A stretch of 64,000 bases of DNA, taken from IMG/VR virus record IMGVR_UViG_3300014968_000002, positions 673 to 64,672 of that record. One strand, given 5' to 3'. Made by a program: the position numbers and the translations under genes. Position 1 is the stretch's first letter. Every line of letters begins with the position of its first letter. This DNA comes from a virus (lineage: Duplodnaviria > Caudoviricetes). The notes beneath the pieces are model-generated. The model did not search any database. It had not been told where the DNA came from and saw only the letters and a program-made list of their open reading frames with translations. Shown piece after piece: positions 9,844-48,940 of the stretch.

Positions 9844-10731
9844 ATGAATCAATGGCATGCCCTGCTTGAGCAGGCAATGAAGAACGGATCAGCACGGCCT
9901 GACCGCACAGGAGTTGGAACGTGGTCTCTATTCGGAGTGCGCACTGAGTGGGACCTTGCAAAAGGATTCCCTGCTGTTACGACAAAGACTCTAGCCTTCA
10001 GCCAGATGGCTGCAGAGCTGGCCTGCTTCATCCGCGGGTACAATAGCCTGACTGACTTCAATCAGATGGGCTGCAAGATTTGGGATGGCAATGCCAAGCA
10101 AACCACCGGCAGCATGTTCCGCCCGCGCTTCGAAGGAGACCTGGGCCGTATCTACGGAGTGCAGTGGCGGCGCTGGCGCAGTGCGCATCATCTTGCATCA
10201 AGCAACACCATCATCATGGACGAGACAGACCAGCTTGCCAATCTGGTGGCCGGGCTGAGGCGTGATCCTTATGGCCGCCGCCATATCGTCAGTGCATGGA
10301 ACCCGGGCGAGCTGGCTGATATGTGCCTGCCGCCCTGCCATATGTTCTTCCAGTGCTATGCCGAGGATGACACGGCAATGGCCCAGGAAACATTCGGCGA
10401 GCAGCCGCATCTGCTCACTACGGCCGTCTATCTGCGCTCGCTGGACTTGTTCCTCGGCATGCCTTTCGACGTGGCATCTTATGCGCTGCTTACGCATCTG
10501 ATTGCCCGCGAGCTGGGCTGGGGAGTCGGCAGGCTTATCCTCGTGGCAGGCGACGCGCATGTGTACCGCAACCATGCCGATGCCGTGCGCGAGGTGCTGA
10601 GCCGCGAGCCGCTGCCGCCTTGCAGGCTGCAATTGGCCGATGGCACCGACCTCTTCAGCTTCATGCCGTCGGAAGCGCGCCTTGTTGAGTACAAGTCGCA
10701 TGGCCCGGTGGCAGCGCCGCTCAATCTCTAA
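9844..10731 (+). CDS. thyA: Thymidylate synthase family protein (Asp at the dUMP-specificity Asn position)
   Basis: RPDRTGVGT, LGRIYGVQWR, SAWNP, LPPCH, RSLDLFLGMPFDVASY, GDAHVY.NH. Confidence 0.92.
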   Translation: MNQWHALLEQAMKNGSARPDRTGVGTWSLFGVRTEWDLAKGFPAVTTKTLAFSQMAAELACFIRGYNSLTDFNQMGCKIWDGNAKQTTGSMFRPRFEGDLGRIYGVQWRRWRSAHHLASSNTIIMDETDQLANLVAGLRRDPYGRRHIVSAWNPGELADMCLPPCHMFFQCYAEDDTAMAQETFGEQPHLLTTAVYLRSLDLFLGMPFDVASYALLTHLIARELGWGVGRLILVAGDAHVYRNHADAVREVLSREPLPPCRLQLADGTDLFSFMPSEARLVEYKSHGPVAAPLNL

Positions 10732-10740
10732 GGAGGCAAC

Positions 10741-11328
10741 ATGGAAGAAGTGCTATGCACGCTCTGCGCTGAGCAGCAGGGCAGAAGCGGTACCAAGCTA
10801 TGCGACCGCTGCTGGGAGCTGAAAACCAGGATCGAGCGCGATCCGGCGCTCGCGCTAAAGGTCCTCTCGCGCAGCCAATCAGCCATGCCGCACTATGCCA
10901 GCAACTTCGGCGATGTGCTGGCCTTCCACCAGAAGATGGGCCTGCCGACATCGCTGATTCCGCGCATGCTTGACCAGGAGCAGTTCCTCTACCGGCTGCG
11001 CTTCAAGCGCGAGGAACTGCAGGAGCTGGAGGACTGGTTCTTCCAGCAGGACATGGTTAAGGTCGTCGACAGCCTGCTCGACCTTGCCTATGTCATCATG
11101 GGAACTGCCGTTGAAATGGGCGTGCCATGGAATTCTTGCTGGGCCCATGTGCATGCAGCTAACATGAAGAAGCAGCGCGACGGAGGCAGCGCGGATATGG
11201 GCTATGCAGGCCGCTACAAGAACCGCATCTTGAAGCCTGATGGCTGGGAGCCGCCTGACAACGAGATAGCGCGCGAGCTGATGCTGGCCGGCTACAACCC
11301 GCCTGAGTCAGAAGGAGGCACGCTGTAA
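10741..11328 (+). CDS. MazG-like/PRA-PH-type all-alpha NTP pyrophosphohydrolase
   Basis: DVLAFHQKMG...REELQEL...VDSLLDLAYV...VHAANMKK...ILKPDGWEPPD. Confidence 0.85.
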   Translation: MEEVLCTLCAEQQGRSGTKLCDRCWELKTRIERDPALALKVLSRSQSAMPHYASNFGDVLAFHQKMGLPTSLIPRMLDQEQFLYRLRFKREELQELEDWFFQQDMVKVVDSLLDLAYVIMGTAVEMGVPWNSCWAHVHAANMKKQRDGGSADMGYAGRYKNRILKPDGWEPPDNEIARELMLAGYNPPESEGGTL

Positions 11329-11795
11329 TGAACCGCCGTGGATTCTTGCGCGCAATGCTTGCGGCTGCCGCGGCACCTGCAATCGTGCGCGCAGAATCCA
11401 TCATGCGGGTGCGGCCGCTGAGAAGCCTGGCAGAAGAGCATGCGCTTGAGGTAGAGCGCGCGGTCATGTTCGGCGACTCGGCGATAGTTGATATCGACCA
11501 AGCTTTGAGAATGATATGGGATAGCTCAAAGCTGATGCCTACGCAGATTTATATTGCAGCATCGCAGGCCGAGCAAATAGGCCTGATATTTTCAGAGGGA
11601 GATACTTATGGAATCTATTCTGGTGAAGCTGAAGAGCGGAGAGCAATTGGAGGTTCGCGCCTCGTTCTACCCGCTTGGTACCAAGAACCTGGGCTGGGAA
11701 GCAATGGAGAGGGCGAGAGAAGCATTGGCAGACAGCCCGCATGTCCTGGAAGCGAAGATCATTACTGTAAAGGAGTAGACGATGGCAGCGACTAA
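11328..11795 (+). CDS. Hypothetical protein with twin-arginine-like leader
   Basis: MNRRGFLRAMLAAAAAPAIVRA; GGAGG SD. Confidence 0.6.
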   Translation: MNRRGFLRAMLAAAAAPAIVRAESIMRVRPLRSLAEEHALEVERAVMFGDSAIVDIDQALRMIWDSSKLMPTQIYIAASQAEQIGLIFSEGDTYGIYSGEAEERRAIGGSRLVLPAWYQEPGLGSNGEGERSIGRQPACPGSEDHYCKGVDDGSD

Positions 11796-12045
11796 AAAAG
11801 CCAAGAAGCCGGAGCAGCCTGCCGCCGACGACCGCCTGCACGTGCGCGAGCTGTATATCCGCCGCACGCTTGCATCGGATGCAGACAAGTCGCATATCAC
11901 GTGGCACATGGTATGGGACGCAGAGGCTTTCATGCAAAGCCAGCTCGACGAGGAGTGGAAGCGGCAGGACAAGAAGCAACCATTCTACGTGCTGTCGGTT
12001 GCAGACAAAGCCGACTACTACCAGCAGGTCAGGAGAAGCAAATGA
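11782..12045 (+). CDS. Hypothetical protein
   Basis: AGGAG SD; coupled to next gene. Confidence 0.7.
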   Translation: MAATKKAKKPEQPAADDRLHVRELYIRRTLASDADKSHITWHMVWDAEAFMQSQLDEEWKRQDKKQPFYVLSVADKADYYQQVRRSK

Positions 12046-12623
12046 GGCCTTCGATCGACGATACCATGATGGCGATTGCTATGGCGCTTTCCCTTCGCGC
12101 CACATGCTATAAGGCCAAGGTGGGCTGTGTGCTCTGCGACAAGCAAGGGCGGATCCTCTCGGCAGCCTACAATGGCGTGTCGCGCGGCGAGCCGCACTGC
12201 AACCACGAAACGCAATGGGCTCTTCCTCCAGGCTGGACTGAAGAGGAATCCTACGCAGCTTATCTGCGGCAGAAGTACGGGAAGCCGGTGATTGCCAAGG
12301 GCAAGGAAATAATCCAGTTTCCGTACGTCTGCGGAGGCGCAATTGCCCCGCCCGGTTCCGACCGCTGCGAGGCCGTGCATGCGGAGACCAATGCGCTCCT
12401 GCAATGCCGAGACCCGGACCTGATCTACAGCGCCTACTGCACGGCAGAGCCTTGCTTTCGCTGCACCAAGGAACTGCTCAATACCGGCTGCCGGCGGATC
12501 GTCTGGGCGCGCCCGTACGGGCCTGAGCCGCAGGCAGGCGAGCTATGGCAGCGGCGCGGCCGCGAATGGCTGCAATTGCAGGCCGAGCCGCCAGCCGCCC
12601 AGGCAGGCGCAGAAGAGGCCTAA
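12042..12623 (+). CDS. dCMP deaminase
   Basis: RATC.KAKVGCVL...AYNG, HAETNAL, EPCFRC Zn ligands. Confidence 0.92.
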   Translation: MRPSIDDTMMAIAMALSLRATCYKAKVGCVLCDKQGRILSAAYNGVSRGEPHCNHETQWALPPGWTEEESYAAYLRQKYGKPVIAKGKEIIQFPYVCGGAIAPPGSDRCEAVHAETNALLQCRDPDLIYSAYCTAEPCFRCTKELLNTGCRRIVWARPYGPEPQAGELWQRRGREWLQLQAEPPAAQAGAEEA

Positions 12624-12777
12624 AAAGCGCGGCAGCGGCTTTGATACAGCTCCACCATCGCGTTTCCAGCCGGCAGCCGCGGCGGGTATAGCCTGGAGGC
12701 CTTGCCAGAGCGCCTGGAAGGCCGATAGCCGACTGCTTTAGTCGGCAATTATTGCAGCGCAACAGAAGGGAGAAAGC

Positions 12778-13824
12778 ATGAGCATTAAAGTCCTGGTTCC
12801 TTGGGTGCCGCCCTTGGACCTCGTGGTACCGCGCATCGAGCGCGCATACAAGGCCAGATGGTATACAAACTTCGGCCAGCTCGTCGAGGAATTGGAAGCG
12901 CGCCTGGCCGAGAAGTTCTTTCCTGGAATGCATGTGGTGACGACTTCCTCAGGCACGTCTGCCCTGGAGCTGTCCTACCGGTTGCAGCGCGCCTACGGCA
13001 TCCATACGGCGCTCCTCAGCGCCTGGTCGTTTCCTGCCGCGGCCCTGGCTGCGCATGCCGCAGGGCTGCAAGTCAGGTTCCGCGACGTATCACCCAGCAC
13101 CTGGAGCGACGGCTCGGTGGCTGCCTTGGGCATTCCTGTCAGCAAGGACCTGGACGACCGGCCTTTCGTCGTCGATGCAGCCGCGGCGATAGGAATGCAA
13201 AAGGCGCTGCCTGAGGCGCTGCTCTGCTTCTCGATGCATGCAACAAAGCCGCTGCCTGCCATCGAGGGAGGATTCATCGTGACGGCTATGCAGGATGAAG
13301 CGCGCGAGCTGAGGCGCATGACCAACTTCGGATATGCAGAGCCGACGCGCACAGCGCACATATCGACAGGGCATGCCACGTCGATGGGCTGGGGAACCAA
13401 CGCCAAGCTATCGGAATTCCATGCAGCAGTGGCCCTGGCAGCGCTAGATCAATGGGAGCTGATCGAGCTAGGCTACCTGCGCCTCTTCGATCTTTACGAG
13501 AAGAACCTGCCGCCCGAGGTGTCTGTTGCTCCGGCCCGCAAGGTGCGCGGCATCTATCCGGTGCTGGGCGTGAAGCTGCCGCAGGGAATACGCGCATCGC
13601 GCATCTACCGCCATCTGAAGGCGGCAAACATCGAGACGCGGCGCTGGTACTCGCCTCCCATCTCAGGCCATATTTTGTTCCGTGCTCTTTGCAGTGAGTT
13701 CCCTGTAACAGACGAGCTGGCCGAGCACGTCATCGGATTGCCTTGGCACCTGTACCTGCAGGAAGGCGATATCAAGGAAGTCTGCTTCAATCTCGCAAGC
13801 GCTATTGGAAAGGAAATGAAATGA
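12778..13824 (+). CDS. DegT/DnrJ/EryC1/StrS (VioA-like) PLP-dependent NDP-sugar aminotransferase
   Basis: WYTNFG.LV.ELE, SSGTSALEL, VVDAA, FSMHATK (PLP Lys), EGGFI, GTNAKLSE..AA. Confidence 0.9.
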   Translation: MSIKVLVPWVPPLDLVVPRIERAYKARWYTNFGQLVEELEARLAEKFFPGMHVVTTSSGTSALELSYRLQRAYGIHTALLSAWSFPAAALAAHAAGLQVRFRDVSPSTWSDGSVAALGIPVSKDLDDRPFVVDAAAAIGMQKALPEALLCFSMHATKPLPAIEGGFIVTAMQDEARELRRMTNFGYAEPTRTAHISTGHATSMGWGTNAKLSEFHAAVALAALDQWELIELGYLRLFDLYEKNLPPEVSVAPARKVRGIYPVLGVKLPQGIRASRIYRHLKAANIETRRWYSPPISGHILFRALCSEFPVTDELAEHVIGLPWHLYLQEGDIKEVCFNLASAIGKEMK

Positions 13825-14519
13825 GACAGCAAGGACCGAGACTTTTTATTTTCGGGTGCGGCGGCTACGGCCGCGAAGTTATGGATATGACGCTGCGGCA
13901 CATGGCCCAGCTCGCGGCCAACAATATCCGTGTGCAGGCTGAATTCCTGGTCGACCAAGAAGGATCCATCCCGCCCAACCGCCTGGTCAACGGCCTGACG
14001 GTGCGCCATATCCGCGAGGTGATGGGCGACAAGACGCGCAGCATGGACGGCTACGTGGTGGCAGTCGGCGATCCTGCCGCGCGCAAGAAGATAGTGGAGA
14101 CAATCGAGAAGGCATGCATCGAGCTTGGTAATCCAGGCCGCTTGCAGCCCGACCGCGTGAAATCACCGACGGCAGTTGCCTCAGACGATTCGCAGGCCGG
14201 GCCTGGATCCATCCTCAGCGACTTCGCGCTGATTTCTCCCAATGCAAGCATTGGAACGCACTTTCACGCCAACATATATTCTTACGTCGCGCATGACTGC
14301 GTAGTCGGAAACTATGTGACGCTTGCGCCCAAGGCTGCAGTCAACGGCAATGTGCGGATAGGCGATGGCGTCTACATAGGCACCGGCGCTGTCATCAAGC
14401 CGGGAGTCAGCATCGGCAACGGCGCTGTGATCGGCATGGGCGCAATGGTCTTGCGCGACGTTGAAGACGGCGAGATCGTGGTGGGAAACCCGGCAAAGCC
14501 AATGAACAAGAAGCGCTAA
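13821..14519 (+). CDS. PglD/NeuD/VioB-like NDP-sugar acetyltransferase (hexapeptide repeat)
   Basis: IFGCGGYGREV, VVAVGDP..R, left-handed beta-helix repeats, HDCVVG, VVGNPAK. Confidence 0.9.
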   Translation: MRQQGPRLFIFGCGGYGREVMDMTLRHMAQLAANNIRVQAEFLVDQEGSIPPNRLVNGLTVRHIREVMGDKTRSMDGYVVAVGDPAARKKIVETIEKACIELGNPGRLQPDRVKSPTAVASDDSQAGPGSILSDFALISPNASIGTHFHANIYSYVAHDCVVGNYVTLAPKAAVNGNVRIGDGVYIGTGAVIKPGVSIGNGAVIGMGAMVLRDVEDGEIVVGNPAKPMNKKR

Positions 14520-14532
14520 CCAGGAGAAGCAA

Positions 14533-16548
14533 ATGGAAGAAGTAAAGGGAGAGGCACCGGCAGCCGTGGCTGACAAGCCTAAAGAGCCGGAGAAAGTCGC
14601 GCTGCACTCGGTGAACCTCGAGCAATTCGAGGAGCTGGTCTATCAGCGGCAGCACGTCCGCGGCATGAACGAGCTGGTAGCAATCCTCTTGAAGCTGCGC
14701 GCAGGAGCGGGCTTCATGAATCATCCGGTCATGCAAATGGAAGATCCAAAGATTGCGAGCGTGCTGTGCACCCGCCTTGCCGCAGCTATCACAGCGCTGC
14801 TTGTCGACGTGGGGACGACGATAGACGAGGACGAGTTCTCGCGCGTCGCTGTTCTGCAGCCTACGCTCGATACCGTGTTCTCGTTGTCTGCATTCCAGAA
14901 CAGCGACCACATCATGGCGCTGTTGTCTGATAACCCATCTGAGCGCGACCCGGCTAAGCGGCACTACAGCTCACAGCAGGCATTCGCCAAGGCGATGATG
15001 GTCTGGACAATGGACTCGAATATCGATATCGATTTCGAGGGCGCATTCGCCAATGCCAAGACCTTGCTATTCTCATGGTTCCTAGGCATGTCGTCACGCC
15101 TGCCTCCGCTGACGGCCCGGGCCTTCGACCGTTACCAGAAGATCATCGGCTACGGCGAAGCATTCGAGCAGGAGCATATGCGCGGCGACCTGCTGCCGGC
15201 GCTGGCCGATGCCAACATGCACTGCTCCTATGCCGTGCGGCCGGATAAGCACAAGCTAAAGCGTAGCGCATCGCGCATCCTAAAGAAGAACTGGGCATCG
15301 CTGATCGGAGCAGGCGTGGGCGATGCCCGCGATATCCGGCGCGAAGCGCGGCGGCCGCTGGGCGGGCAAGGCAGCGAGAAGCCAGTCATCCTGATGCCGA
15401 TCGAGTGGTGGACAAGTCACCATGCCATGTATCGCTGCTATGAGCCAGTGGTCGCGCAACTGCGCAAGGACTTCAGGCTAGTGGCCATGGCGCGCCCGGA
15501 TGCATACGATGAGGAGTCGGCCAAGTGCTTCGACGAAGTAATACCGCTCGGCTCCAAGACGCGCGCCATGGTGCTGCAGGAAATCGTGATGAACATCAAG
15601 CGCATCAAGCCGGATGTGATCTACTACCTGTCCGTCGGCATGGCGCAATGGTGGACAGCGCTGTCGGCCGTCAGGCTTGCGCCGATACAGCTCATGTCGC
15701 TTGGCCATCCTGCATCCTCAATGTCCGTCGAGATGGACTATGCTCTGGTCGAGCACGGCCTGGCGCTGGGGCCGGATACATTCCGCGAGACGATCTTGGA
15801 ATTGCCGGTCAATGCGCTGAAGTTCAAGAAGCGCGCCGACCACGATGAAGAGACTATCAAGAAGCTGCGCGAAGGGCGGCTGGCTGACAACGGCGTGGCA
15901 CGCGCACAAGGGCAATTCCACGTCGCCGTGCCGGCCATGGCAGCCAAGCTGAATTATCCCTTCATCAAGCTGTTGCAGGAGGCGCGCAACGAAGCAGCAC
16001 TGGAAGGAGTGACAATACATTATCACTTCTTCCCGAACCTGCTCGGCATGGGGCAGATGCTGTACAAGCGCCTGCTAACAGAGCTGTTACCGGGCAGCAT
16101 TATCAACGAGCGCTGCGGATACGACCTCTACCTGCTGAAGCTGTCGACCTGCGACGTGCACGCGTCGCCATTCCCGTTCGGCGGCACTAACTCTAACCTG
16201 GACTCGATGCAACTAGGCATGCCGGTCCTTGCTCTAGAAGGGCCGATGGAAGTGCACGAGCGCTACGATGCAGCAATGCTGAGGCGCGCAGGCTTGGCTG
16301 ACCTGATTGCCGGCGATGCCGATCATTACAAGAGCTTGCTGGTGAAGATGGCCACCGACGCCAAGTTCTTGGATGAGCAGAAGCAGAAGGCCATGGCACC
16401 GGATATCGATGCCATTTTCTACAGCGACCTCGCGCCTCCGGCCAAGGATGCCTTCGCGAACGCAATCAAGTACGTCTACCGCAACCATAGCAGGCTGAAA
16501 ACCGCCGGCCGCAAAATCAGATGGGAGGAGTACAGCAATGCAATATGA
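14533..16548 (+). CDS. HMW1C/NGT-like (GT41) cytoplasmic protein N-glycosyltransferase
   Basis: Full-length colinear resemblance to HMW1C/ApNGT: LEQFEELV, RLAAAITAL, YMHCSY-like NMHCSYA..PDKH.LK, KPV..M..EW.TSHHAMYR, SVGM...RLAPIQ..SLGHPAS, AKLNYPF, SPFPFGGTNSNLD, EVHE..D. Confidence 0.85.
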   Translation: MEEVKGEAPAAVADKPKEPEKVALHSVNLEQFEELVYQRQHVRGMNELVAILLKLRAGAGFMNHPVMQMEDPKIASVLCTRLAAAITALLVDVGTTIDEDEFSRVAVLQPTLDTVFSLSAFQNSDHIMALLSDNPSERDPAKRHYSSQQAFAKAMMVWTMDSNIDIDFEGAFANAKTLLFSWFLGMSSRLPPLTARAFDRYQKIIGYGEAFEQEHMRGDLLPALADANMHCSYAVRPDKHKLKRSASRILKKNWASLIGAGVGDARDIRREARRPLGGQGSEKPVILMPIEWWTSHHAMYRCYEPVVAQLRKDFRLVAMARPDAYDEESAKCFDEVIPLGSKTRAMVLQEIVMNIKRIKPDVIYYLSVGMAQWWTALSAVRLAPIQLMSLGHPASSMSVEMDYALVEHGLALGPDTFRETILELPVNALKFKKRADHDEETIKKLREGRLADNGVARAQGQFHVAVPAMAAKLNYPFIKLLQEARNEAALEGVTIHYHFFPNLLGMGQMLYKRLLTELLPGSIINERCGYDLYLLKLSTCDVHASPFPFGGTNSNLDSMQLGMPVLALEGPMEVHERYDAAMLRRAGLADLIAGDADHYKSLLVKMATDAKFLDEQKQKAMAPDIDAIFYSDLAPPAKDAFANAIKYVYRNHSRLKTAGRKIRWEEYSNAI

Positions 16549-17074
16549 AATCAACAAGGTCCGCGAGCAGCATGACAAGATAGGCCTGCCTACGCGGGAC
16601 AAAGCGCCGGCAGTCTTTCCTCCGGATGAGCGCCACGGCCGGGCACGCTCGGTCCGCATGGCAACTGACGGACTGATACGCCAGGGCATCAACAACCAGA
16701 ACATCATGGAAATTGCCGTCGGCGTGGCAGAGACCATGACCTCGGCTGCCGGCACCTGCATACAGTTCGGACTCGAGCCTGACCTGTCCGATGCCCTGGT
16801 CGCGGCGCGCGAGCTGATGGAGGACGCGCGCCTGGTGCTGGTCAATGGCCTTGCTGTCAGCGAGCATGCCCAGGTCCGCATCGGCGCATGCATGCTGGAG
16901 ATTGTCTGCGTGGGCATTGCGCAGTGCTTCGGCATTCCGTACAAGGCCATCTTCGACCTCGCGCATGCAGCTTATATGGAAGGCAAGGAGATAAGCCGCG
17001 AAGCCGTGCGCGTGGCCATAGAGGAGTCGCGGCAGAAGGTGCCTGCCGCAGCTAACGATGCAGGCGCGCCGTGA
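16538..17074 (+). CDS. Hypothetical protein, degenerate MazG/PRA-PH-like fold
   Basis: KVREQHDKIGLP start and FGIPYKAIFDLAHAAYM end echo gene 10741; acidic catalytic motif absent. Confidence 0.65.
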   Translation: MQYEINKVREQHDKIGLPTRDKAPAVFPPDERHGRARSVRMATDGLIRQGINNQNIMEIAVGVAETMTSAAGTCIQFGLEPDLSDALVAARELMEDARLVLVNGLAVSEHAQVRIGACMLEIVCVGIAQCFGIPYKAIFDLAHAAYMEGKEISREAVRVAIEESRQKVPAAANDAGAP

Positions 17075-17283
17075 GCCGCGGGGAGCTGAAATGGCTTGGC
17101 GCTGCGCTTCTTGCCGCGGCGCTGGGCGCAGGAATGCTGCTCGGCCGCGGCATGGGCCAGCTCAGCCGCGCGGTAGAAGTCGAGCAAGCGCTTAGAATAG
17201 GGAAGGCGCGGGCAGAAGCTGCGCACCGCGGCTGCTTCTTTGTGGTACCGAAGGGAAAGAGATGGGCGCTGGATCCAAGCTGA
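17071..17283 (+). CDS. Small protein with N-terminal hydrophobic helix
   Basis: GTGA overlap; WLGAALLAAALGAGMLLG. Confidence 0.55.
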   Translation: MSRGELKWLGAALLAAALGAGMLLGRGMGQLSRAVEVEQALRIGKARAEAAHRGCFFVVPKGKRWALDPS

Positions 17284-17585
17284 TGGACTTTACCCTGCTC
17301 ATGAGCATCCTCAGCCGTGCTCGCGTCAGGTGCATCAATGAGACGCAGAAGGATCCTGCTGCCTGGATCTTCACTCCGCCTGCCTGGACCATGGCAGTAA
17401 AGTCGGTGACTGAGTACGAGAGCAAGATGAAGAAGATCTTCTTCAGTGCGCCGCCTCTCGACAGCGGCATGAAAACAATGTACCTGCATCATATTGTCTG
17501 CTTGTGCATTGAAGGCGGCGCGCCGATCAAGATGCGGACACAGCTTGGCGATACAACCGTTGTTCTAGACGACTCGAAAAAATAG
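17262..17585 (+). CDS. Hypothetical protein
   Basis: Last gene of rightward block; start 17262 or 17282. Confidence 0.55.
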   Translation: MGAGSKLMDFTLLMSILSRARVRCINETQKDPAAWIFTPPAWTMAVKSVTEYESKMKKIFFSAPPLDSGMKTMYLHHIVCLCIEGGAPIKMRTQLGDTTVVLDDSKK

Positions 17586-17613
17586 GGCAGGGCCGTTTCC
17601 GGCTCTGCCCTTA
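17577..17613. terminator. Terminator between convergent blocks (U-tract on minus strand)
   Basis: A-run 17577-17582 then GGGCAGGGCC-gtttcc-GGCTCTGCCC hairpin. Confidence 0.7.
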
Positions 17614-26538: not shown

Positions 26539-29091
26539 TTACCTCCGTTTGCTCGACATTGCCAGGTCCTTGCTGCCAGTTCGCGCGCCTTTGCGCACGG
26601 CAGCAGTGACAGCAGACTCAAAGTCATCCATGCCGTAAACATCGCCATGCATGTGCACGTGAACCGCTCCACCTCCTCCGCCTCCTGCTGCCATGCCGCG
26701 GATGGTGTCGGCAAGATGAGCCGGCAAGATCATTTCCTTCTCGTGAGTCTGGACCATTGGGTTGATGCCGGCAGGAATATCGTAGCCGCCTGCTGCCGAG
26801 GTAACCGCGCTTGCTTCTCCTGCTACAAGCAGCGCCGCAGCCGGTGCAGCCGCGGCTGCCAAGAAAGGACCGATGATAGGAATGCCTGACAGCGCGGCGA
26901 ACACGCCTGAGAACGTAGTGGCCGCATTGTTCATGATGGTCTTGATGGCAGACATTGCCTGGGCTGCAAGTCCTTCATCGGCAGCAGCCTGCTCTGCAGC
27001 AGAGCGCGCTGCGGTTCCTACCAAGGTAGAAGAGGTCTTGGCTGTCTCTGCCTGCAGGTGTGCCGCGGCTGACAGGCGCTCAAGCTGAATCTCGGCCAGC
27101 TTGTTGACGAGCCATTGCTTGCCCATCTTGATGAGCATGTTTATGAACTCGCCCAGTATCGATTGCCAGATATTTGCAAGCGCTTTCTGAAAAGTGGTGG
27201 TGCCCATTATCATGCCCTTGATTGAAGTATCAAAAGCATTGCTGATAGACGAAAAAATATTGTCCCAATTCTTTTTGAGCGCTTCGCCTACCTTGACCTG
27301 ATTTTGTATCTGCTTCAGTGCATAGTCGTCATCGAGCTTAAGTAGTTCGTCCTTTGCTTCTTTGGTATCGAGCTTGTCTTTCTCGAGAAGAGCCAGCTTG
27401 TCCTCAAGAGCCTTGCGCTGAATGTCGTAAGTCTGCCGCGCGTTCTGCTGCTCATAGAGTGCAAAGGTCTGCTCGGTGATCTGGCCCATCGCCAGGCGGC
27501 CTTTTTGCCGCTCCATCTCCTGGGCAAGCAAAGCTGTATTGTGCTTGGCATTGCTGTCTATCTCAGATGCTTGAAGCTGAACTTTAAAATCATGCAGTGC
27601 CATCTCCGCCTGGGTCTTCTCGCGGATGGCCTGCTTGTATTCGGTGCTGTCCTCGCCGTAGATAGACTTCTGATGCTCAGCCCATTCTCCGGCGATCTTT
27701 ACCTTTTCCTCCTTTGAGGTGCGGGCCTCGGCCATCTGCTGTGCTTCGTCGGCCTTGGCATCAGCCTGCCCTTGCTGGGCCAGTTGCTTGGAAAGCGTGT
27801 AGATCTGCTGGCGAACGGCGAACCATTCCTTGCTCTTCTCCTTGAAATCGTGCAGGTGCGATTCCCAGAACGATTTGTCGGACTTGGCCGTGTTCTCGAG
27901 CAGGTTGGTATCTTCGAGGTGCTTGTTCATAAGCTCTTCTTTGAGCTTCTGAACCGCGCTCTCTTCTCCCTTGGCCTTGCCGGTATAGCTCTTGCCGCCC
28001 TTCTTGCCCTCGCTGCCCTCGGCGTGTATCTCGCCTTTGCGCAAAGGCTTGTCCCAGATATCGTCAACCTGCGCCTTGGTCTGCGAGGTGATGAGGACAA
28101 GCTCGTCCATGAATTTGCGCCAGCGCTGCTTTGCTGCATCGACCGGGTGAGGGCTGGCAATAGCCGCGGCCATTCCGCCGACTGCCTCAATCGTGGCGGT
28201 GATAATGCTGATGGTGGCAAGCAAGTAGGTTATGAGCGATTGCCACATCTTGGTAAGAACCTCGATGACTCCGCCCAGCCCTTTCAAAGCTCCTTCGAGA
28301 ATCTTGATTGCAGTAGGACCAACCTCGCGGAACCACAGCGCCATGGCTTCAAGCCGCGGCATCATGTACTCGGCGATAGCCTTTCCCATGCCTTGCAGCA
28401 CCAGCCCAACTTCTGCAGTGGCCGTATGGAAGCGGTGCATGTCATCGACGCCGGTCTTGGTGGTTGCCAGGCCAAGATCTTCAACGTCCTGCTTGGCGCG
28501 CGCCATCATCTCGCTATTGAGGCGAAGCAGCGGCAGCACAGCTCCCCATCCGCGGCCGAACAATTCGGTGGCAGCCAGGTTGCGGTCGGTTCCTTCTTTG
28601 AATTGCTGCAGAGCGCCCAAGGCATTCTGCATGATCTGCTGCCCATCGAGGAACTCGTTGTTGGCCCCTCGCGTGGCGACGCCTAGTGCGTTCAAGCGCT
28701 GCTCATTGTTGCGCACCTGCAGAGTCATGCGCTGCAGGAGTCCTTCATATTGCTCGGCTGAAACGCCGATAAGCTTCAGCGCCGCGACTTGCTCGGTTGC
28801 TTTTTCGGTGGTGGTGCCGAGCATCTCAGACATCTTGAATGATGCCTCGGTAAACTCATCAGCCTCCTTGATGATTTCGGCGAAGCTGCCGCCGGCAACC
28901 ATCGCCATGATCTGGCTTTTGACTTGATTGAACTTCTCGCCAACCGAGGTAAGCTTCTCGGTCAGCTCCTTGCTCTGCTCAGCCATGCTCTTCGAGAATT
29001 CCTCGAAGCGCTTGTTGAGCAGGTCGACGGCCTGTACTGCGCCGTCGGTGTCTGCTGTTACCGATATGCCTACCTCGTTCGGATCGCTCAC
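26539..29091 (-). CDS. Tape measure protein
   Basis: 850 aa helical Ala/Leu/Lys-rich; C-terminal AAGGYDIP...HEKEMILPA; follows chaperones. Confidence 0.9.
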   Translation of the reverse strand: MSDPNEVGISVTADTDGAVQAVDLLNKRFEEFSKSMAEQSKELTEKLTSVGEKFNQVKSQIMAMVAGGSFAEIIKEADEFTEASFKMSEMLGTTTEKATEQVAALKLIGVSAEQYEGLLQRMTLQVRNNEQRLNALGVATRGANNEFLDGQQIMQNALGALQQFKEGTDRNLAATELFGRGWGAVLPLLRLNSEMMARAKQDVEDLGLATTKTGVDDMHRFHTATAEVGLVLQGMGKAIAEYMMPRLEAMALWFREVGPTAIKILEGALKGLGGVIEVLTKMWQSLITYLLATISIITATIEAVGGMAAAIASPHPVDAAKQRWRKFMDELVLITSQTKAQVDDIWDKPLRKGEIHAEGSEGKKGGKSYTGKAKGEESAVQKLKEELMNKHLEDTNLLENTAKSDKSFWESHLHDFKEKSKEWFAVRQQIYTLSKQLAQQGQADAKADEAQQMAEARTSKEEKVKIAGEWAEHQKSIYGEDSTEYKQAIREKTQAEMALHDFKVQLQASEIDSNAKHNTALLAQEMERQKGRLAMGQITEQTFALYEQQNARQTYDIQRKALEDKLALLEKDKLDTKEAKDELLKLDDDYALKQIQNQVKVGEALKKNWDNIFSSISNAFDTSIKGMIMGTTTFQKALANIWQSILGEFINMLIKMGKQWLVNKLAEIQLERLSAAAHLQAETAKTSSTLVGTAARSAAEQAAADEGLAAQAMSAIKTIMNNAATTFSGVFAALSGIPIIGPFLAAAAAPAAALLVAGEASAVTSAAGGYDIPAGINPMVQTHEKEMILPAHLADTIRGMAAGGGGGGAVHVHMHGDVYGMDDFESAVTAAVRKGARTGSKDLAMSSKRR

Positions 29092-46948: not shown

Positions 46949-48940
46949 TTAGTCATCCTTGTCCATCTCGATGGTCACGCTCTTTTGCAGCCCAGTCTCG
47001 ACTTCGGTTACCTCACCGATAAGCTCGCCGGTCTTCTGGTCCCTGCGCGCCTTCACGATCTTCTTCATCGGGCGAGGATGCTGATCGGCATTGGCCTCCC
47101 GCCTGAGGTCAGCCTTCACGGTGAAGCCGCCCATCTTGACAGCTGGCGGATTGATACGCATGCCGCTCATATCCACGATCGGCGAGCCGACTTCCACGTA
47201 CAGGTCGCCGCCTCCTTCCAGCTTGGCCACGGGCTTCAGCCTGGCGACGCCTGGCTTCTGGCCTGGCTTGGCCTGGCCATCCTTGGCCGGATCGCCTGGC
47301 TTAGCGCCTGGCGCGGCAGCCTGGCCGCCGCCGCCTGGCTGCATGCCCATGACCGGAGGCGGCTCGGGCGGATTGACCGCATCCTGCCTGGCGCGCTCGA
47401 CGGTCTCCTTGAGCGGCACCGGTCCCGCGGCCGTCTCAACCAGGAGTTCGTCCATGCCGCGCGGCGACAGGCCTGCGTCGGACCGGGCTTCATCGGGCGA
47501 CATGATGCCGGCCTTGACATAGGCGACGTTGGTATCGGCCTTGACCTTCGGATCCACTTCCACGGCCAGCTTGAACGCGAACTTGACGTCCGGGCACATG
47601 AGCACATTGTTGGTGACCCAAGTCAGCTTGCCCTCCATCCAGCGGAGCAGCGGCATCAGGCCTTCTTCCTTGGCCGACTCGCTTGCCTGCTGCGCACTCG
47701 CGCGGTTCATCTGCTTGAGCAGCGCCTGCGGGCTGATAGAGAAGCAGAAGCAGATAACGCGGGCGAACCATTCATCGGTGCCGTCCGTCAGCGCGACCTC
47801 GTTGTCCTTCAAGTTGAAGATGGACTTCAGCTCGGGGATGAACTGCAGCCGGCGGCGCATCTTGGTATTGCCGGACAGGCGCGAATCGAATTGGTCCTGG
47901 AACTCGGCCGTCTGCTCGGGCGTCCAGGTCTCAGGCACGCCGAGCAGCGCATCGGGAATATTACCCTCGGTGTAATACTCCAACTGATAGGCCTGGCGGC
48001 GCATGGCGATGTTGACCGTCGTGATGACCTGCTCCACAGGCGAGTAGCCGTAGAGCTTGTTGGTGCGCTGGTTGCGCATCCAGTAGAGAAGCTGGTCGCC
48101 CTCGGCCCGCAGGTCGTCGCCCTTGGCAATGCCCATATAGTCTGCCGCAGGCACGCCCTTGATGATCTGCTGGTACGCAGGATCAGGCGGCATAGGGCGC
48201 ATGCCGCGCTCGTCAATAAGGAGCTTCACAGTTGCCACGTCGATGGGCACCAGCGAATGCAGGTCGCCTTTGCGGTCGGCGCGAGGATAGAGTGCCACGC
48301 CGTCGCAGACGAGGTGCTCGTCCATTAGCACGCGGGACCATTCGAGCCAGTCCTGGTCCGGCGTCGGTTGCTCGAAGAACTCCGATGCTTTCTTGATCTG
48401 GTCCTTGAAGTCATCCTTCTTCTTGGTCTGGTCCTTCGGCACAATCTCCCATTCGTAGGCGCACACTTGATCCTTGCGCGTCTCTATCACAAGCGAGAGC
48501 AGGTCGTAGTTCTCGCGCAAGGCGCGCAGCACCTGGAACGGCACGCCTGCGCCTGCCTCGCTCTTGGGCAGGAACTGTATGTTCTGGCCTTGCTGGAAGT
48601 CCCAGCGCCGGCCCTTCGCGCCCAGGTCGTCGCTCTGCGCATACGGCTGCAGAGGCTGCTGAGGTGAGAACCACGTCGTCGGCCTGATGCCGCTGATGAG
48701 GAACCGCATGCCTTCCTGTACGCGCTGCGAGAGCGGCACCTTGGTCATGCCTGTCTGCGACATGGCACGCGCCTGCTCGGCCAATGAATATGCACGCGCG
48801 CCCGCAGTCGGCGACACTTTGGCGAGGACTTCCATCAGCTCGACTGCGCCCCTGGCATTCGGGTCTCGGGCCAAGACCTTGGCCAATTCCATGCCCAGCT
48901 TGGGATCAATGATATCCCGCCCTGTGATTGCCTGGCTCAT
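46949..48940 (-). CDS. Portal protein (HK97-like) with extended termini
   Basis: After TerL; LSLVIETRKDQ, IDVATVKLLID.RG, YGYSPVEQ, YYTEGNIP, MSPDEARS..GL. Confidence 0.9.
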   Translation of the reverse strand: MSQAITGRDIIDPKLGMELAKVLARDPNARGAVELMEVLAKVSPTAGARAYSLAEQARAMSQTGMTKVPLSQRVQEGMRFLISGIRPTTWFSPQQPLQPYAQSDDLGAKGRRWDFQQGQNIQFLPKSEAGAGVPFQVLRALRENYDLLSLVIETRKDQVCAYEWEIVPKDQTKKKDDFKDQIKKASEFFEQPTPDQDWLEWSRVLMDEHLVCDGVALYPRADRKGDLHSLVPIDVATVKLLIDERGMRPMPPDPAYQQIIKGVPAADYMGIAKGDDLRAEGDQLLYWMRNQRTNKLYGYSPVEQVITTVNIAMRRQAYQLEYYTEGNIPDALLGVPETWTPEQTAEFQDQFDSRLSGNTKMRRRLQFIPELKSIFNLKDNEVALTDGTDEWFARVICFCFSISPQALLKQMNRASAQQASESAKEEGLMPLLRWMEGKLTWVTNNVLMCPDVKFAFKLAVEVDPKVKADTNVAYVKAGIMSPDEARSDAGLSPRGMDELLVETAAGPVPLKETVERARQDAVNPPEPPPVMGMQPGGGGQAAAPGAKPGDPAKDGQAKPGQKPGVARLKPVAKLEGGGDLYVEVGSPIVDMSGMRINPPAVKMGGFTVKADLRREANADQHPRPMKKIVKARRDQKTGELIGEVTEVETGLQKSVTIEMDKDD

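Follow-up and report, generated by a model that had tools for sequence, protein, structure and literature searches.

To our knowledge, cytoplasmic N-glycosyltransferases (NGTs) have been described from no more than a few bacterial adhesin systems, in which glucose or galactose is transferred. These enzymes are prized tools for producing glycoproteins in E. coli. Among phages, Che8-type mycobacteriophages are said to decorate the siphophage capsid and tail tube inside the host with phage-encoded glycosyltransferases, reportedly of other families and with O-linkage to C-terminal Ser/Thr-rich tails. Here, we analysed a window of 64,000 nucleotides (nt) that covers all but 672 bases of a complete IMG/VR virus record (IMGVR_UViG_3300014968_000002; 64,672 bp, with direct terminal repeats). 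It carries a cassette of four translationally coupled genes, encoding a DegT aminotransferase, an acetyltransferase, a GT41 transferase and a protein of 178 amino acids (aa) (Table 1). We give about even chances to the reading in which these genes form one unit that glycosylates proteins on asparagine in the cytoplasm of the infected cell, probably those of the phage's own virion; the donor, the acceptor and the activity of the transferase are those that we infer from sequence. The initial annotation of this DNA, which described three of the four genes, knew of no characterised phage NGT, and our literature search for a phage NGT or a GT41 virion system likewise found no report. To this we add the fourth gene, a likely deoxythymidine diphosphate (dTDP)-linked donor, a conserved reader of the Asn-X-Ser/Thr (N-X-S/T) sequon, a weakened case for DNA as the acceptor, and a candidate acceptor site.

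The transferase classifies as an HMW1C/NGT-type GT41 enzyme over its whole length. It resembles the HMW1C-like enzymes of NF049992, namely HMW1C of H. influenzae, ApNGT of A. pleuropneumoniae (3q3e) and AaNGT of A. aphrophilus (8p0o), in length and in three-domain build, with about 30% identity over residues 27-646, and it shows the full architecture of an all-alpha N-terminal domain followed by two Rossmann-like GT-B halves. Both Pfam models exceed their cut-offs (HMW1C_N, 57 bits against 27; Glyco_transf_41, 29 bits against 25), and the NCBIfam NGTferase model matches with an E-value of 3e-71 over model positions 3-573 of 614. As the initial annotation had claimed, the 671-aa product tracks ApNGT along its length, in one continuous alignment of residues 27-611 (E 1.4e-54) in which the motifs it had named (GHP, KLN, PFPFGGTN..D and EVHE) are seen; AaNGT aligns too. 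The comparison it had suggested between HMW1C and SPINDLY/OGT came out clearly for the former, since a profile built from 28 transferase relatives hits ApNGT 3q3e at 4.6e-140, SPINDLY at 3e-18 and OGT at 1e-13. It is the only recognisable glycosyltransferase of the phage. Indeed, no GT2 or GT1 family match was obtained anywhere in the phage genome, which sets it apart from the mycobacteriophage systems. The phage transferase also differs from the HMW1C/NGT systems in being encoded by a phage, in an operon with its own amino-sugar pathway, in its predicted donor, a dTDP-acetamido-dideoxyhexose and not UDP-glucose (UDP-Glc), and in its presumed acceptors, virion proteins and not secreted adhesins.

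Residues with tested roles in ApNGT and AaNGT (PMC10466321, PMC10507012) were mapped onto the transferase alignments. The nucleotide-binding and catalytic Lys441, Tyr501, Asn521 and Asp525 of ApNGT are kept as K472, Y533, N553 and D557, of which K472 and D557 are invariant among the 28 relatives. The Tyr222/His371 pair that handles the acceptor Asn in ApNGT (PMC10466321) is kept as Y233/H392, both invariant in the same alignment. Moreover, the reader of the +2 Ser/Thr, Asp215-x-x-Met218, is found as D226-A-N-M229; the DegT-linked phage clade retains this Asp, and other clades have a different residue there. On the donor side, His495, a UDP contact in ApNGT, is replaced by Arg527, Arg being the commonest residue there in the phage-linked clade, and the loop of Gln469, which contacts both sugar and peptide, is one residue shorter and hydrophobic (FFPNxxG throughout the clade). 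We read the transferase as an enzyme that would work like an NGT on the acceptor side and whose donor side has changed. As to the catalytic Lys and His that the initial annotation had wanted checked in a proper alignment, Lys441 and His371 have their counterparts; His495 and His214 do not.

The two genes upstream of the transferase are those expected for a donor of its own. The aminotransferase belongs to Pfam PF01041 (122.9 bits, cut-off 19.8; E 2e-35), has 3ju7 and DesI (2po3) among its relatives in the PDB, and keeps the HATKP motif of the lysine that binds pyridoxal phosphate (PLP), aligned with the lysine of 3ju7. It is a divergent member, falling far under the cut-off of all curated equivalog models, including the best NCBIfam one (DesI-type dTDP-4-dehydro-6-deoxyglucose aminotransferase, 4e-30). 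It is predicted to convert a nucleoside diphosphate (NDP)-4-keto-6-deoxyhexose into the NDP-4-amino-4,6-dideoxyhexose. The acetyltransferase passes the cut-off of NCBIfam TIGR03570 (NeuD/PglB/VioB; 169.3 bits against 160.8) and those of Pfam PglD_N and Hexapep. Its PDB relatives are WeeI (4m9c, 2e-38; the stretch YSYVAHDCV is identical in both), 7l7y and 7l7z (Psychrobacter-type), VioB (7txp, 5e-24), PglB, PglD and PerB, and all of its solved relatives are N-acetyltransferases of 4-amino-4,6-dideoxyhexoses. The DegT/VioA plus PglD/VioB pairing proposed in the initial annotation is supported.

The same pair, a DegT enzyme followed by a PglD-fold N-acetyltransferase, is found in VioA/VioB (dTDP-Qui4NAc), in PglE/PglD and WeeI (UDP-N,N'-diacetylbacillosamine, UDP-diNAcBac), and DesI belongs to the same group of enzymes. 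In contrast to these systems, the aminotransferase of the phage is divergent and no dehydratase is encoded; the known VioA/VioB and Pgl-type products, moreover, feed lipid-linked O-antigen or oligosaccharyltransferase routes, not a soluble Asn transferase. The lack of a dehydratase, first remarked for the window, extends to the whole complete genome, in which no epimerase or 4,6-dehydratase of the short-chain dehydrogenase/reductase (SDR) type was found. Four related cassettes do carry a RmlB dehydratase (TIGR01181, 352-377 bits for a cut-off of 365; three above, one just below). Because related cassettes carry RmlB and this phage has no dehydratase, a dTDP-linked donor is probable, and the likeliest one would be a dTDP-4-acetamido-4,6-dideoxyhexose derived from the dTDP-4-keto-6-deoxyglucose of the host.

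The initial annotation presented three genes as one unit after a gap. The coordinates and strand were right, and the unit has a fourth gene, which overlaps the transferase stop by 11 nt. Its 178-aa product has homologues in at least eight other related phage loci, beside the transferase (after it in L002, L003, L006, L010, L011, L014 and L017, just upstream in L007). No Pfam or PHROG match was obtained for it. The AlphaFold2 model is all-helical, with a predicted local distance difference test (pLDDT) score of 91, and its N-terminal half looks like a MazG/PRA-PH fold: the first 80 residues superpose on the MazG-like DR2231 (VIA-align Z 10.1, a Z within the chance range for helical bundles; root-mean-square deviation 1.8 A over 77 residues), other MazG/HisE entries are among the top ranks, and an atlas lead points to PRA-PH/MazG clusters, the Foldseek E-value being just 0.04. 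Seven residues are invariant in nine homologues (E4, P81, L93, R98, E121, G126 and Y135), without the full acidic cluster of MazG/PRA-PH (EExxE ... ExxD).

The acetyltransferase was correctly recognised as to presence and family, and its start is most likely ATG 13821 and not the upstream TTG 13743, as this ATG overlaps the DegT stop (ATGA) and lies behind the ribosome site GGAAAGGAAA. Thirteen nucleotides separate the acetyltransferase stop from the transferase start. A gap of 154 nt parts the cassette from the deoxycytidine monophosphate (dCMP) deaminase gene and holds the DegT ribosome site (AAGGGAG, 12766-12772) and an inverted repeat, only a possible unit boundary, which was passed over in a scan for consensus terminators; within 12400-17600, neither promoters nor terminators of consensus type scored above chance. 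The source virus is a siphophage, with late genes on the minus strand (large terminase, portal, capsid, tail tube, tape measure and tail tip) and early, replication and nucleotide genes on the plus strand, from about 51 kb over the record ends to about 17 kb. Its closest cultured phages are the Brevundimonas phages Polewnik and Strzyga (capsid identity 50%). The cassette, used as a DNA and as a protein query, had no match among 50,697 records of cultured phages.

Relatives of the transferase were found on viral contigs and in bacteria. A large protein database holds 52 of them, many on contigs of 59-68 kb, and our scans gave 20 viral and 78 bacterial loci, with a DegT gene adjoining the transferase in at least 12 of the former and about 19 of the latter. 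The phage transferases form one clade in the tree, together with a few bacterial members. Three forms of the cassette can be told apart: a minimal one in this phage and L002; a second that adds a Rieske oxygenase, a beta-ketoacyl-acyl carrier protein synthase III (KAS III) and an SDR; and a third with RmlB, an adenosine monophosphate (AMP)-ligase, a GFO oxidoreductase, a carrier-protein-like open reading frame (ORF), a GT2-radical-SAM fusion and a methyltransferase. The initial annotation had asked for co-occurrence of its three genes in related phages, and DegT, acetyltransferase and transferase genes do stand together in many viral loci, as well as in L004, a plain bacterial chromosome where they lie with an epimerase-like gene among housekeeping genes and no phage genes nearby.

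Altogether, the following route can be proposed. The host would supply dTDP-4-keto-6-deoxyglucose, an intermediate of the rhamnose pathway, which the DegT enzyme would aminate at C4 and the VioB/WeeI-like enzyme would N-acetylate, yielding a dTDP-4-acetamido-4,6-dideoxyhexose (Qui4NAc or Fuc4NAc type, +187 Da). The HMW1C/NGT-like transferase would then put the sugar directly on the Asn amide nitrogen, at N-X-S/T-like sites of folded or folding proteins, with neither a lipid carrier nor an oligosaccharyltransferase being required. The acceptors would be outward-facing virion domains, those of the tail tube first, then those of the capsid and the tail tip, and the 178-aa protein of putative MazG fold would be an accessory. 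Between related phages, the genes for tailoring are exchanged (an acyl ligase, KAS III, an SDR, a Rieske oxygenase, a methyltransferase and a second transferase, of family GT2), so that the attached sugar seems lineage-specific, which would fit an exposed and selected surface mark. We hold more tentatively the wider proposal that one lineage of siphophages of Proteobacteria, with genomes of about 60 kb, coats the outer domains of its tail tube and capsid with Asn-linked N-acyl-4-amino-4,6-dideoxyhexoses, through a soluble NGT whose donor pocket was rebuilt for a dTDP amino sugar and with tailoring genes swapped to give a variable glycan coat.

The best candidate acceptor is the major tail protein, whose five N-X-S/T sites (N102, N110, N127, N140 and N144) all lie in the central beta domain. 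The model of this protein is middling (pLDDT 66), better in the central domain, at about residues 88-168, and was used for domain limits and the fold match only; in YSD1/Chi-type phages we take this domain to be the outer one. Among 78 distinct homologues, 25 in the clade of this protein and 53 outside, the site at residue 144 (N-E/T-S/T) is present in all 25 clade members (NET 15, NES 9, NTS 1) and in 2 of the 53 others. A second site, F-N-x-S/T, is found in 19/25 and 1/53, and a third in 16/25 and 1/53. All eleven transferase carriers (ten in the comparison set and the closest relative, L002) fall inside the clade and keep the residue-144 site. This site is absent from the five transferase-less proviruses long enough to judge and from cultured phages of Brevundimonas and Acinetobacter, in which the transferase is likewise missing; all of these lie outside the clade.

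The capsid and the tail tip come next. In the major capsid protein, seven of nine sequons fall within residues 164-335, a local enrichment of about 2-fold in which the reverse motif S/T-X-N shares equally. Seven carrier phages have 7-9 capsid sequons and Polewnik, which has no transferase, has 3 in the aligned region; we discarded such counts as evidence of a target, carriers (7-9) and others (1-8) being confounded by relatedness and by fragments of unclear status. In the central tail-tip protein, a weak third candidate, the last 210 residues hold 9 sequons against 5.0 expected from local shuffling (nominal p 0.04, in a window chosen post hoc). Taken together, local tests of the three sequon clusters give an excess of about 2-fold with nominal p of 0.003-0.05, again in post hoc windows, two of which are equally enriched in the reverse motif.

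Co-inheritance lends the virion reading indirect support. What the four complete carriers G001-G004 have in common with this phage is the capsid, the tail tube and other virion genes, as well as the four cassette genes. Replication genes are not shared, except that G001 has a match to the dCMP deaminase and a weak one to the DNA polymerase, and no homologue of the helicase, the primase or most other early genes tested was detectable in the four genomes. Mosaicism is strong in these phages (loci L212-L227), the virion proteins being 35-60% identical to those of this phage. As a separate observation, most sequons of the phage sit in outer proteins, and two other late proteins have none: the tape measure protein (26539-29091, minus strand; 27 Asn, 3.1 sequons expected) and the portal protein (46949-48940, minus strand; 17 Asn, 1.4 expected), neither of these features being significant alone.

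A number of observations weigh against virion N-glycosylation as just outlined. When each of the 88 ORFs was shuffled, no protein was enriched in N-X-S/T, and the late genes as a group showed no sequon excess when early and late genes were compared, four control motifs behaving alike; a mild depletion in early genes is mirrored by the control Q-X-S/T. The link between tail-tube sequon and transferase amounts to one phylogenetic split, and Asn is abundant in general in the tail tubes of the carrier clade, where the reverse motif rises equally. The cassette lies on the early strand, outside the late operon and next to nucleotide-metabolism genes, and, as it always adjoins tail and lysis genes, it may simply travel with them. 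In the enzyme itself, ApNGT Arg177 has no clear counterpart (Arg189 stands one column earlier in a poorly conserved loop, where relatives have His, Thr or Ser) and His214 of AaNGT and ApNGT is replaced by Ala225; Arg177 is required for AaNGT activity according to residue studies (PMC10507012, PMC10466321). Finally, the match to NF049992, the equivalog model of UDP-glucose:protein N-beta-glucosyltransferase, reaches 240.9 bits for a cut-off of 1000; the transferase belongs to the family without being an equivalog of the UDP-glucose enzyme. Of the virion target put forward by the initial annotation, co-inheritance with the virion module and the conserved tail-tube sequon speak in favour, and the general sequon enrichment was not found. 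As the tail-tube link is a single split and sequon numbers elsewhere do not exceed chance, virion proteins of this phage, most likely the tail tube and the capsid, are a likely but unproven target.

Table 1. Features of the glycosylation cassette and candidate acceptors, in positions of the 64,000-nt window
Feature	Length	Position	Strand	Basis
Inverted repeat (GCCGACT / AGTCGGC, 5-nt loop), AATTATT after	7 bp	12728..12746	+	Read from sequence
DegT/DnrJ/EryC1-family PLP sugar aminotransferase	348 aa	12778..13824	+	Pfam, NCBIfam, PDB relatives
NeuD/PglB/VioB (PglD-like) left-handed beta-helix N-acetyltransferase	232 aa	13821..14519	+	TIGR03570, Pfam, PDB
HMW1C/NGT-like GT41 glycosyltransferase	671 aa	14533..16548	+	Pfam, NCBIfam, ApNGT alignment
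All-helical protein, N-terminal half possibly MazG/PRA-PH-like	178 aa	16538..17074	+	Conservation, AlphaFold2 model
Central tail-tip protein, weak third candidate acceptor	1181 aa	21040..24585	-	PHROG tail protein match
Major tail (tube) protein, best candidate acceptor	248 aa	29759..30505	-	Fold match to YSD1 and Chi major tail proteins
Major capsid protein, second candidate acceptor	517 aa	32771..34324	-	Annotation of distant phage hits

If glycosylation of the virion were true, a virus would for the first time be seen to use the cytoplasmic route of N-glycosylation, and no natural NGT before this one would have moved anything other than a plain hexose. With an amino-sugar pathway of its own, a phage NGT would add bacteriophages to the viruses that encode N-glycosylation and would offer natural enzymes that place bacillosamine-like acetamido sugars directly on Asn. 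It would also supply an example, open to testing, of surface glycans on the virion that differ among related phages, with bearing on receptor binding, particle stability and escape from recognition by the host or in the environment. N144 of the tail tube is a concrete first target for mass spectrometry.

Among the alternatives, the one that survives best, unlikely as we consider it, keeps the same Asn-glycosylation chemistry and moves the acceptor to a host protein or a non-virion phage protein (a flagellin, pilin or adhesin receptor, or a target of defence or takeover), so as to exclude other phages or to control the host. The early-strand position of the cassette, the lack of general sequon enrichment in virion proteins and the L004 bacterium, with its set of three genes and no phage genes nearby, would all suit such a role. 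The substrates known for HMW1C/NGT enzymes are adhesins of the bacterial surface (PMC3012730, PMC10507012), and the flagellin islands of Enterobacteriaceae place a GT41 gene beside DegT, acetyltransferase, fatty-acid-synthesis and methyltransferase genes, much like the larger phage cassettes (PMC4875605). The GT41 enzymes of these islands are described as SPINDLY/OGT-type, mostly fused to a methyltransferase, and act on flagellin, presumably through O-linkage (PMC4875605); the phage enzyme is HMW1C-type, its N-terminal domain is all-alpha, and the phage lacks a flagellin gene. Against a host or non-virion acceptor, the cassette is co-inherited with the virion module across phages of unrelated early genes, the tail-tube sequon tracks the transferase, another phage group has its transferase beside tail genes, and no candidate host target can be named.

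It is still less probable that the enzyme glycosylates proteins without recognising N-X-S/T or without using Asn, acting on Ser/Thr by O-linkage or in a relaxed Asn context, as in OGT/SPINDLY-type GT41 and flagellin systems. Indeed, at the positions by which ApNGT reads the sequon and twists the Asn amide, the enzyme retains Asp226-x-x-Met229, Tyr233 and His392, its match to NGTs surpasses those to OGT and SPINDLY by more than 100 orders of magnitude, and the fully conserved tail-tube site has N, a variable +1 position and S/T at +2. This alternative would nevertheless account for the peptide-site residues that are not clearly kept (Arg177, His214), for the rebuilt Gln469 loop, for carrier-clade surface proteins enriched in Asn generally and not in sequons, and for the sister phage group that has no Asp215 counterpart.

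Very unlikely, in our opinion, is a transferase that uses the UDP-glucose of the host, leaving the aminotransferase and the acetyltransferase to drain or alter the host dTDP-sugar pool for O-antigen or capsule. ApNGT-type enzymes do use UDP-Glc, most nucleotide-contact residues are kept, and bacterial relatives of the phage clade (the Roseomonas clade) stand alone without sugar genes; yet the phage has no other transferase to use the sugar product, the cassette genes are translationally coupled, varied sugar-tailoring genes flank the transferase throughout the phage clade, and the donor pocket is unlike that of ApNGT (His495 to Arg, Gln469 loop).

T-even phages glucosylate 5-hydroxymethylcytosine in their DNA with alpha- and beta-glucosyltransferases, and the present locus recalls them, its GT-B fold transferase having for neighbours a pyrophosphatase, a dCMP deaminase and a ThyA-like enzyme that bears the dCMP-type Asp. 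Hardly credible, all the same, is the idea that the ThyA-like enzyme makes 5-hydroxymethyl- or 5-methyl-dCMP and that the transferase glycosylates the modified base: the cassette directly follows these nucleotide genes, the GT-B fold is common to GT41 enzymes and T4 DNA glucosyltransferases, and diversified sugars would suit an arms race with restriction systems, but this reading is weakened because none of the three genes (ThyA-like, MazG, deaminase) lies within 10 kb of the transferase in about 100 other loci, four of the five complete carrier phages have no PF00303 (thymidylate-synthase family) gene, the residues that bind the peptide Asn and the +2 Ser/Thr are kept, an ordinary bacterial chromosome has the same cassette, the replication modules of carrier phages are unrelated, and no sequence relation to DNA glucosyltransferases was seen. 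The nucleotide genes themselves lie within 9844-12623 (plus strand). The ThyA homologue shows the motif PFDVASY, an Asp in place of Asn177 at the Asn that specifies dUMP, and a full-length C-terminus like that of thymidylate synthase; it is followed by the MazG-like pyrophosphatase, a 155-aa protein and the dCMP deaminase. It could be a dCMP methylase or hydroxymethylase, or serve a route from dCMP through 5-methyl-dCMP to dTMP.

Other loci show further variation of the cassette and of the transferase. A 726-aa protein in which a GT2 glycosyltransferase is fused to a radical-SAM domain (L012:10226-12403, plus strand; also in L005, L007 and L013) adjoins the AMP-ligase, the carrier-protein-like ORF, the GFO oxidoreductase and the methyltransferase, which suggests a second sugar and an unusual N-acyl group in these variants. 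An HMW1C-like transferase is also encoded by a separate phage group (L019:19-7018, plus strand; also L020-L022 and L062), represented by a 61-kb record with terminal repeats; there it directly precedes an SU10-adaptor-like gene, itself followed by a tail fibre gene, and has Thr, Ala or Gly in place of the Asp215 counterpart. One apparent family of transferase neighbours, family 10, was rejected as antisense ORFs lying over the transferase itself. In metagenome-assembled genomes (MAGs) of Roseomonas and related bacteria (L033-L048, L055, L077, L092), a stand-alone transferase clade without sugar genes is flanked in conserved synteny by thrS/infC and a DNA photolyase gene; its members have Ala, Asn or Ser at the Asp215 site and His at the Asn521 site. 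Finally, on a 509-kb contig of a Bordetella sp. MAG (L032 and L029), HMW1C-like paralogues stand in tandem, as four or more called ORFs of 640-840 aa, and genes resembling those of a dehydratase and an acetyltransferase are close by.

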